Position numbers and translations under genes: made by a program. 64,000 nt of DNA from Nitrospirota bacterium (GTDB lineage: Bacteria > Nitrospirota > UBA9217): assembly GCA_963741205.1 (NCBI GenBank), contig CAVUHW010000012.1, forward strand, positions 1 through 64,000, read 5' to 3'. The notes beneath the pieces were generated by a model, which was not told the DNA's origin, did no database searches, and saw only the letters and a list, made by a program, of their open reading frames with translations. Each line of letters starts with the position of its first letter. Within the stretch, counting starts at the first letter, position 1. Shown here piece after piece: positions 48,963 to 51,114 of the stretch.

Positions 48963-48995
48963 AAAAAAAACAGGCCCTGACATGATCAGGGCCTG
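48963..48995 (-). terminator. Intrinsic terminator (original cspA terminator)
   Basis: CAGGCCCTGA-CATGA-TCAGGGCCTG hairpin followed by T8 on the minus strand. Confidence 0.8.
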
Positions 48996-49118
48996 CAAAG
49001 GTCTATGCCTTAGACATAATGGCTGACAGTTGAAAATCAAGTGACCTGCCCCTTGCAACGTGGGTTATACTTGGGAACCCGGTTCCCAAATACAGAGCCA
49101 CAACCAAGGAGGCAGGTC

Positions 49119-50227
49119 ATGAAACATTCTATCATTTTTGTCGGACTCGATGTACACAAAGATTCGATCGATATCGCCATGGCCGATGACGGCAGAAACG
49201 GCGAGATCAGGTTCTACGGCACCATCGGCGGCGATCTGGCATCGCTGGACAAAGCGATCCGGAAATTCCGCCGTTCAGGCGTTGAGCTTCGCTTCGTATA
49301 TGAAGCGGGACCCTGCGGCTATGAGATCTACCGGCACCTGACCGCACAGGGATTCCACTGCGATGTTATCGCGCCTTCGATGACACCGAAGAAGAGCGGC
49401 GACCGAATCAAAACCGACCGGCGGGATGCCCTGACTCTTGCCCGGCTCTACCGGGCGGGCGAATTGACACCGGTTTATGTCCCCCGCGAGGACGATGAGG
49501 CCATGCGTGACCTGGTTCGGGGCCGGGAGGATGCTGTAAACGCAACCCGGAAGGCCCGGCAACGCTTGAGTGCTTTCATTCTTCGTCATGGATTCCGGTA
49601 TTCGGGCGCAAAAGCTTGGAGCGTAGCCCATCTGCGTTGGCTTGCGGACATCAAAATGCCGCATCCGGCCCAGCAGATCACGCTACAGGAGTATATCCAC
49701 AGCATCGAAGAGTGCTCGGAGCGTGTAGATCGCCTGACCGAGCAGATATTGAAACTGATCCCGACATGGCGCATGGAGCCGGTAGTAAATGCCCTGCAAG
49801 CCCTACGGGGCGTGGCACCCATCGTTGCATCGACCATGGTGGTCGAGATCGGAGACCTCAGGCGGTTTGAGAATCCCCGGCAGCTCATGGCCTATCTGGG
49901 CTGGTTCCATCGGAGAACTCCAGCGGCCAGACCACAAAGCGGGGTGGGATCACCAAAACGGGCAACGGACATGCCCGGCGTGCGCTGATCGAGGCAGCCC
50001 AGGCATATAGTTTCCCGGCCAGGGTCAGCAGAGCGCTCCGAAAACGTCAAGAGGGCCTGCCGCGCGAGATCAAGGAAATATCCTGGAAAGCCCAAGTGCG
50101 GCTCTGCGGACGATTCCGCAAGCTCATGGCCAAGGGGAAGAACAGAAACCGAACCGTAACCGCGATCGCACGAGAGCTTTCCGGTTTCATGTGGGCCATT
50201 GCCAAGGAAGTGCCCATGCCGGCATAA
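49119..50227 (+). CDS. IS110 DEDD recombinase (frameshift near 49900)
   Basis: VGLDVHKDSI, YEAGPCG, KTDRRDA, SSG..ITKTGN, AIAREL. Confidence 0.93.
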
Positions 50228-50324
50228 TGCCAGGAATAACTTTCAAAGAACAAGACGGCTATTAAGGAGAGCAACCAAGACCAAATACAACTATCCAGGG
50301 TATCATCAGAGACGCGACCACGAT

Positions 50325-50470
50325 CAGGAGAACTCTCGTTTAAACTATGGAATAAGGCTCATGCCGAACTTCCGCTTTTAGAGCGAGACAGCTCCGCGAT
50401 GAAGACAAGTCATGCGGTCAAACCCGCGAATATCAGAGTGATCAATCGTCGCCGACAGGTCCCGTCTCTG
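50325..50470 (+). ncRNA. Putative bridge/seek RNA
   Basis: Two stem-loops with internal loops matching the target and the donor junction; boundaries approximate. Confidence 0.7.
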
Positions 50471-50561
50471 ATTATGCCCTGGAGCAATAACTGATATCAT
50501 CCCTTTTGCATAAAGGGGCGGGGAAACTGTTTTGTCCTTGACAACTGTCAACCATATCAGT

Positions 50562-50762
50562 TTAGAGCTTTACAACGTTGGCTGCTTTGGGACCCTTGGG
50601 TGAGTCGACAACGTCGAACTGAACCTGCTGGCCTTCAGTCAACGACTTAAAGCCGCTGTCCTGAATGTCGCCAAAATGAACGAACACATCGCCGCCATTT
50701 TCACGGGTAATGAATCCAAAGCCTTTGGAATCATTGAACCACTTTACTGAACCTGTCTCCAT
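50562..50762 (-). CDS. cspA: Cold-shock protein
   Basis: [19 protein letters not shown]. Confidence 0.97.
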
Positions 50763-50811
50763 GGTAAGCTACCTCCTTCTTGTGAAATTGAAGCGACGGA
50801 AAAGGACAAAA

Positions 50812-50906
50812 AAAATACCGCAAAGTCAATCAGTCTTTGCGGTCTCCCTACAAGAACATCCGGAACTTCTATATAAGATAATGCTCCTTCTGCGCCGGAA
50901 TGTCAA
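50812..50906 (-). promoter_or_regulatory. cspA promoter and structured 5' UTR
   Basis: TTGACA-N17-CATTAT; hairpin ACCGCAAAG...CTTTGCGGT in the leader. Confidence 0.5.
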
Positions 50907-50994
50907 TGGTTATTATTGTTCAAGCGGTAATAGCCTGCCAGTATTCCACGGGTCCTGACTGAAAACGGGCCAGAATGATTGACAAGCAAGAAGT

Positions 50995-51038: not shown

Positions 51039-51114
51039 TGGCTCCCGGAGCAGGACTCGAACCTGCGACATGGTGGTTAACAGCCACCCGCTCTACCGAC
51101 TGAGCTATCCGGGA
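51039..51114 (-). tRNA. tRNA-Asn(GTT)
   Basis: Cloverleaf, anticodon loop CTGTTAA, GTTCGAG, CCA. Confidence 0.96.

Follow-up and report, generated by a model that had tools for sequence, protein, structure and literature searches.

Organization of the insertion sequence and its target site

The 64,000-nt stretch of DNA analyzed here (the window) contains an IS110-family insertion sequence (IS) of 1,547 bp, with one AG core counted, next to the cold-shock protein gene csp (Table 1). The boundaries of the element are apparent from a comparison with 22 related loci that keep both ends, as the flanks diverge exactly outside the common sequence. On the plus strand, the flanks read ATGCCTT-AG / IS / (AG)-TTTAGAG, corresponding on the minus strand to CTCTAAA-CT-AAGGCAT, which a preliminary description of this locus had reconstructed as the empty site. 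The reconstruction is borne out by 7/7 same-genus loci examined (L084-L090), in which the site is uninterrupted: the csp 3' end, TTTAGAGC or a 1-nt variant of it, abuts the terminator-side flank, with exactly 2 nt (AA, GA, GG and others) in place of the window's AG plus the IS. Insertion has thus added the IS and one 2-nt core. Since the csp end and the terminator flank are contiguous in the empty sites, the element inserted 1 nt beyond the csp stop codon and parted the gene from its terminator.

The two subterminal inverted repeats are 14 nt long and 13/14 (93%) complementary, and the non-coding ends measure 105 nt to the left of the transposase gene versus 333 nt on its 3' side. The predicted fold of the left end is a strong hairpin in which the transposase's GGAGG ribosome-binding site and ATG are buried, and this modeled structure likely serves in translational control of the transposase. 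Beyond the right flank, the csp 5' region (50603-50928, minus strand) scores below threshold against the cspA thermoregulator (52.3 bits versus 78), and a tRNA gene (51042-51114, minus strand) lies just upstream of csp.

Table 1. Positions of the insertion sequence, its predicted RNA and neighboring features in the window.
Feature	Position	Strand	Evidence or remark
Terminator-like csp hairpin	48970-48996	-	Now across the IS from csp
Left target half ATGCCTT and left AG core (49012-49013)	49005-49013	+	Just inside the csp terminator region; contiguous in same-genus empty sites
Insertion sequence	49014-50560	+	ACATAATGG ... CCATATC-AG; ends common to 22 related loci with both ends
Candidate -10 box CATAAT, promoter only in the circular form	49015-49020	+	Read from sequence; 18-nt spacer to TTGACA
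Left subterminal inverted repeat ATGGCTGACAGTTG	49019-49032	+	5 nt inside the left end; repeat search
5'-UTR hairpin pairing GUGACCUGCC with GGAGGCAGGUCAU	49041-49120	+	Fold -44.6 kcal/mol, z -4.69, 0/200 shuffles as good
Transposase, N-terminal 260 codons (DEDD/RuvC-like domain, coiled coil, start of Transposase_20)	49119-49898	+	Pfam PF01548 7.1e-17, PF02371 4e-08
Frameshift, one base missing	~49897-49902	+	Between ...MAYL and GLVPSENSSG, inside the GLxPxxxxSG motif
Transposase, C-terminal 109 codons, +1-shifted frame, rest of Transposase_20 with SG motif	49898-50227	+	PF02371 profile positions 42-76
Predicted bridge/seek RNA gene, closing stem and two arms, three-way junction	50294-50483	+	RNAalifold on 27 relatives
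Closing stem P1, 5' arm	50294-50319	+	Pairs with 50458-50483; 26 nt, 88% complementary; 18/21 pairs changed on both sides
Target-binding arm	50327-50395	+	GGAG/CTCC and CTCG/CGAG stems, internal loop, GGAA/TTCC stem and hairpin
5' target guide TTTAAA-CT-A (TTTAAACTA)	50339-50347	+	Equals minus strand of right flank and core (TCTAAA-CT); would pair with plus strand
3' target guide CTTTT-AG	50375-50381	+	Equals plus strand of left flank and core (GCCTT-AG); would pair with minus strand
Donor-binding arm	50396-50452	+	GCGATG/CGTCGC stem, internal loop, GCGG/CCGC hairpin
Donor loop 5' strand AAGACAAGTCAT	50402-50413	+	Expected left-end guide ..ATGTCT absent; only GTC matches
3' donor guide ATATC-AG	50430-50436	+	Equals right end and core
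Small hairpin CCCTTT/AAAGGG between RNA and right end	50501-50517	+	Fold; hairpin at equivalent place in aligned relatives
Candidate -35 box TTGACA of circle-junction promoter	50538-50543	+	TTGAC conserved in aligned right ends
Right subterminal inverted repeat CAACTGTCAACCAT	50542-50555	+	3 nt and core inside the right end
Right AG core and right target half TTTAGAG	50559-50567	+	Contains the csp stop codon (csp on minus strand)
Cold-shock protein gene csp	50562-50762	-	Pfam CSD 3.4e-29

The transposase reading frame and related copies

The open reading frames of the element encode an IS110-type transposase split over two frames, the stop codon of the C-terminal piece lying at 50225-50227. 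The hallmark domains of the family, PF01548 (DEDD_Tnp_IS110) and PF02371, are found across the two pieces, with the motif reading GLVPSENSSG. A second copy of the element resides in the window's own genome, on contig 32 (locus L002); it shares 72% DNA identity, has the same ends and donor loop as the window copy and carries an intact 370-aa gene. The N-terminal piece is 72% identical to this intact paralogue and the C-terminal piece is 77% identical to paralogue residues 261-367. The paralogue protein matches NCBIfam NF033542, 'IS110 family RNA-guided transposase', with 269.9 bits versus a cut-off of 140.

An extra base is present at the frameshift position in 21/21 aligned relatives and in related-copy contigs from 4/4 sequencing runs compared; these contigs represent relatives at 90-99% and not the window copy (none of the runs had more than 0.35 of the sampled words of the window), and a true deletion and an assembly error are both possible. 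As the missing base falls inside the GLxPxxxxSG motif, the assembled sequence puts the serine-bearing catalytic C-terminal part out of frame. The preliminary description had taken the recombinase to be complete, which the broken reading frame contradicts. Judged by its assembled sequence, the window copy is non-autonomous, and the frameshifted transposase may render it inert.

To collect relatives, we used the intact transposase to scan one genome per species, which yielded 79 loci, mostly from Nitrospirota, deltaproteobacterial-type and betaproteobacterial genomes, and the 3' non-coding region can be aligned in most of them. Four copies (L016, L017, L021 and L022) measure 1,746 bp versus the usual ~1,545 bp and hence hold ~200 bp of extra sequence. 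In the window's own genome, a 165-bp fragment on contig 4 (L003, 6232-6396) is 87% identical to the middle of the transposase gene and is a remnant of a third copy. The left flank of the contig 32 paralogue (1478-1502; ..TTAAGGAACG) disagrees with its 3' guide GCTACTAG, the core there being CG and not AG; the mismatching flank belongs to the region of a 447-aa ORF. Another locus with guides identical to those of the paralogue, L039, sits in a matching site, and the paralogue may be a rearranged or off-target insertion. The neighboring 447-aa ORF was considered as a TnpB-type gene and dropped, as Pfam returned no match.

Architecture of the predicted guide RNA

RNAalifold, applied to 27 distinct sequences of the window's wider clade, folds the 3' non-coding region into a three-way junction with a long closing stem, which sets the size of the predicted RNA at ~190 nt. 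The previously assigned extent, 50325-50470, is too short, as the closing stem reaches 50294-50319 and 50458-50483. In the consensus fold, 95.7% of cells are paired by standard pairs and compensatory changes occur in 27/45 pairs; none of 500 shuffles reached any of five measures, and sliding the partners by 1-3 columns lowers the pairing to 35-46%. The window sequence folds alike on its own (z -7.76, 0/200 shuffles). Across 72 loci, the donor-binding arm is the most conserved part of the RNA. The stems described earlier in the first arm are in place (CTCG at 50335-50338 with CGAG at 50384-50387, GGAA at 50349-50352 with TTCC at 50370-50373), and so are the loop strings TTTAAACTA (50339-50347), TTTTAG (50376-50381) and ATATCAGA (50430-50437). 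A search of Rfam returned no match for the RNA region at E values up to 1, the only nearby hits being the tRNA and the sub-threshold cspA thermoregulator.

In the minimum-energy fold of the window sequence, the start of the 5' target guide (50339-50342) pairs with the AGAG that follows the 3' guide (50380-50383). This pairing lengthens the CTCG/CGAG stem and partly shuts the target loop, and it is not conserved in relatives.

A metatranscriptome library (run X16) holds a 146-nt Logan contig covering 50305-50451 of a close relative with the guide TTGACCCTA, which is uninformative on transcription, ends and strand; the contig spans exactly both arms of the relative's RNA. Many contigs of several runs break at 50452, which is where relatives diverge, so that contig ends say nothing about the RNA ends. 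Two candidate features were rejected: a promoter-like site at 50199-50228, considered as the RNA's own promoter, lies in conserved coding sequence and is one of 2 such sites versus 1.1 expected, and ATTATG (50471-50476), considered as a left-end guide, belongs to the closing stem and, unlike the left end, differs among relatives.

The donor loop and the ends of the element

The 3' strand of the second loop reads GAATATCAGAGTGATCAA, in which ATATCAG equals the last five bases of the element followed by the AG core, in agreement with the initial assignment of this strand to the right end. With the next A, the loop equals the predicted circle junction, CCATATC-AG-ACAT (in its longer form CCATATC-AG-ACATAATGG), over 8 bases. 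The identity to the junction had been claimed for the whole of ATATCAGA; the 7 nt ATATCAG are indeed conserved, whereas the eighth base, A, is not kept in relatives, and betaproteobacterial copies read CAGC, with no A after ATATCAG.

ATATCAG is present in 69/72 loci and the right end reads xxCATATC in 64/64 loci where it was located. Both being nearly invariant, loop and end cannot covary within this set, which leaves room for another reading: the RNA would be a seekRNA that reads the target only, its second arm a protein-binding scaffold, with the ends recognized by the recombinase through the subterminal inverted repeats and ATATCAG resembling the right end only because both are conserved. 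This reading gains from the 5' strand of the donor loop, which has no left-end match in the window's clade, and from ISEc11, for which an 82-nt seekRNA with only target matches sufficed for transposition according to PMC11187229.

More distant elements argue for pairing between loop and end. In L123, on a Rhizobium rhizogenes plasmid (49.6% identity), the right end and core read ..TATGAG-AG and the loop and core GGATGAG-AG, so that both have changed to ATGAG-AG. In L121, annotated as ISSfr2 family (57.3% identity), the end ..CATGAG-AG stands against the loop GTATCAG-AG, with a single mismatch and an unchanged register; the core lies 3 nt before a conserved GAT[C/A]A in the window, L121 and L123 alike. 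The last five end bases match the element's own loop at 5/5 positions in the window, 4/5 in L121 and 5/5 in L123, a small sample read by eye, whereas the window's donor guide matches the L121 and L123 ends at 2/5. The ISEc45-like elements L122 and L124, from two enterobacterial plasmids, were left out of this comparison, as one is truncated and the other allows no firm choice of register. The sequences of L121 and L123 speak for a real right-end guide.

The left end presents a different picture depending on the clade. In the betaproteobacterial clade, where AG+ACAAG makes up the left end, the 5' donor strand reads its reverse complement, CTTGTCT, and in L065, whose left end is ACAAA, TTGTCT is preceded by T, not C; Desulfopila copies carry TGTCT. 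These left-end matches, along with the loops of L123 and L121, make an RNA confined to target recognition quite improbable. In the window's clade (..CAAGTCAT..), comparison of the 5' donor strand with the left end gave a fit to the expected ATGTCT at GTC only. Because this strand is degenerate, the left end is perhaps not read by the RNA there, and one half of the donor may then be recognized by the RNA and the other half by a protein that acts on the inverted repeats.

The target guides covary with the insertion sites

Guide positions were set from the conserved scaffold and not from the flanks, the 5' guide being the nine bases after ..CTCG and the 3' guide the eight bases up to and including the G that precedes the 3' half of the stem. 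The donor-arm anchor was located in 72 loci and both guides were extracted from 71 (L024 was lost to the pattern); 10 nt of right flank were at hand in 65 loci and at least 8 nt of left flank in 61. The window is counted among the loci, and two loci with a guide shifted by one base were kept unadjusted.

At the window's own site, the 5' guide matches 5/6 non-core positions and the core, with a possible G-U pair at the odd position. The 3' guide matches TT and AG exactly (2/6 non-core), or 4/6 counting G-U, as its two U-for-C positions would form G-U wobbles. As read from the sequence, the window's guides thus fit their own site in the csp stop codon region, CTCTAAA-CT-AAGGCAT.

This relationship extends to the family. 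The 5' guide matches the reverse complement of the right flank at an average of 4.28/6 positions at its own site versus 1.79 at sites that belong to other guides (53 unique pairs, 32 guides), and the 3' guide matches the left flank at 3.08/6 versus 2.09 (59 unique pairs, 21 guides). For each guide, none of 20,000 permutations reached the observed value, and the covariation is also seen within loci L001-L041 alone. The signal of the 5' guide spans positions -5 to -1 (0.53-0.94 matching) and that of the 3' guide positions -3 to -1 (0.51, 0.85, 0.95). Some fits are poor: three unique pairs match the 5' guide at 2/6, and several sites reach only 2-3/6. The insertion sites of other copies had been named as the check on the loops, and this covariation supports the assignment of both strands of the first loop as target guides. 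The 3' guide is informative family-wide only at ~2-3 positions plus the core.

The core covaries as well. Among 65 loci, guide and site read CT/CT in 28, TT/TT in 25 and CC/CC in 2, and the other 10 differ. In the betaproteobacterial loci L042-L080 (for example, L045-L052), the core of the 5' target guide is TT and that of the 3' target guide and both donor strands is AG/CT; every left junction in that clade is AG, and of the right junctions 25 are AA and 5 AG. This mismatch between guide cores may show which strand's core survives recombination. In L014 and L027 (and L013), the 5' guide core is CC with GG at the junctions (at both ends in L014), and the 3' guide and donor loop keep AG.

A coincidental match between loops and flanks, with the folded region acting in the transposase mRNA merely as a 3' UTR or terminator structure, is practically impossible. 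The brevity of the matches, the two wobbles required by the 3' guide and the single known insertion with the window's guide would be in its favor, but both guides and the core covary with the flanks across the family, mismatched pairings reach at least 5/6 non-core matches in only 20/1,643 cases (0.012), and variable guide positions are flanked by conserved stems with compensatory changes.

The window's guide TTTAAACTA occurs in no other of the 71 related loci parsed, nor in copies from 61 genomes of the family, and an exact search of metagenome contigs for the window's target loop returned 0 matches. The new specificity announced in the preliminary description applies only insofar as every lineage of the family has guides of its own.

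A proposed model for RNA-guided transposition

Our data indicate that the element is very probably an IS110-family IS with an IS1111-type layout, in which the 3' non-coding region encodes a bridge RNA (seekRNA) of ~190 nt. The model below builds on the observed anatomy, the conserved fold and the loop matches to the target and right end, and borrows RNA production, recombinase binding and strand exchange from published relatives. By analogy with IS621 and ISEc11, the element would excise as a circle, and the joining of its ends would create the candidate promoter TTGACA-N18-CATAAT, from which the transposase gene and the RNA would be transcribed; related contigs of the sequencing runs compared contained no circle junction. 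The RNA would then bind the DEDD/serine recombinase, as in the characterized systems. The internal loop of the first arm would pair with both strands of a short target around the AG/CT core, the 5' guide reading ~5 nt plus core on one side and the 3' guide ~2-3 nt plus core on the other. The loop of the second arm would pair with the joined ends of the element, the match being clear for the right end (ATATC-AG) and the pairing weak for the left end in the window's clade. Finally, the recombinase would exchange strands at the core.

As assembled, the window copy would depend for movement on the recombinase of another copy, for example the contig 32 paralogue. A more far-reaching possibility, which we regard as rather unlikely, is that the frameshifted copy persists as a guide-RNA donor, since its bridge RNA is intact and it has its donor loop and ends in common with the paralogue: the paralogue recombinase (72-77% identical) would load either RNA, aim at two targets and mobilize the defective copy in trans. 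If true, this would be a natural one-enzyme, two-guides arrangement.

Systems of this kind have been known since 2024, and the window element is one with its own guides, defective as assembled. With it, RNA-guided recombination gains a well-documented natural case, in a large family spanning Nitrospirota, Deltaproteobacteria-type and Betaproteobacteria genomes. The 32 different 5' guides in the loci fetched amount to a natural reprogramming series for a bridge RNA with IS1111 layout and a short target (~5+2+3 nt). Guide design could draw on three further traits of this sub-family, namely the apparently degenerate left-donor guide, the unequal cores on the two guide strands of one clade (TT versus AG) and the closing stem linking both arms. 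For the host genome the situation is ordinary, with one defective and one intact IS copy.

Comparison with known systems

The layout of the element resembles that of the IS1111 group, as the preliminary description had recognized in assigning it an IS110-family guide RNA of IS1111 type: the RNA lies downstream of the transposase and the inverted repeats are subterminal. Siddiquee et al. 2024 (PMC11187229) show for IS1111-type elements that an essential RNA, encoded in the non-coding region 3' of the gene, co-purifies with the transposase and is transcribed together with the gene from the junction promoter. As in the seekRNAs treated there (ISEc11, ISKpn4, ISPa11 and ISPst6), the window's RNA is located in a long non-coding region downstream of the transposase. 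The 14-bp subterminal inverted repeats of the window fall within the 7-17 bp given for the group. In IS1111-type seekRNAs the top-strand match stands 5' of the bottom-strand match, and the window's guide complementary to the top strand likewise stands 5' of the bottom-strand one. Relatives of the window element have been naturally re-targeted by swapped guide bases, as reported for IS1111 seekRNAs in the same paper. The window transposase, however, is only ~26% identical to the IS4321-family protein, over residues 66-328, and, at 369-370 aa, is longer than the 330-350 aa given for IS1111 transposases. The effective guides also fall short of the 13-20-bp targets that PMC13604230 tabulates for IS1111 elements.

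The RNA also shares several traits with the bridge RNA of IS621, as set out by Durrant et al. 2024 (PMC11208160). There, the 5' guide pairs with the bottom strand and the 3' guide with the top strand, both including the core; the donor loop is analogous, and a promoter is rebuilt in the circle. Both RNAs have two arms with internal loops and a CT/AG core, and in each loop the 5' guide is identical to one strand and the 3' guide pairs with the other, both with the 2-nt core. A longer 5' guide is combined with a short 3' guide, in keeping with the nine-base LTG and four-base RTG quoted for IS621, and the window holds a candidate for a circle-junction promoter. In contrast to IS621, the window's RNA is placed at the 3' end of the element and not at the left end, the order of strand reading relative to the transposase is reversed, and a long closing stem joins both arms into a three-way junction. 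PMC11208160 also predicts that IS1111-group elements carry bridge RNAs in their right end. For IS621, Hiraizumi et al. 2024 (PMC11208158) describe a tetramer that cleaves the top strands, forms a Holliday junction and resolves it. At the protein level, the window's transposase matches the solved IS621 and ISCro4 chains only in their Tnp-domain part, over residues 202-295 (E 4.7e-09 and 1.9e-11, respectively).

The closest named transposases belong to the ISSfr2/ISEc45 group of ISfinder, with 57.3% identity over 99% of the protein to a plasmid gene annotated 'IS110-like element ISSfr2 family transposase'. This element, L121, carries the same RNA scaffold downstream of its gene (GGAGAACCCTCG, 9-nt guide, hairpin, guide-TAG), followed by a donor arm reading ..CAG-AG-CAT-GATCAA; it differs from the window in its ends (ACTAAATG... 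/ ...CATGAG) and in its guides. We found no published description of an ISSfr2/ISEc45 RNA in the available parts of the literature, where these names appear only in supplementary lists of two 2024 papers; the list accompanying PMC11187229 places ISSfr2/ISEc45 beside IS110-type names, and the supplementary tables of these papers may already classify the group. On the evidence of its sequence, the window element is a member of the IS110 family, with an RNA that would work like a bridge or seek RNA, a layout of the IS1111 type and a protein nearest to the ISSfr2/ISEc45 group.
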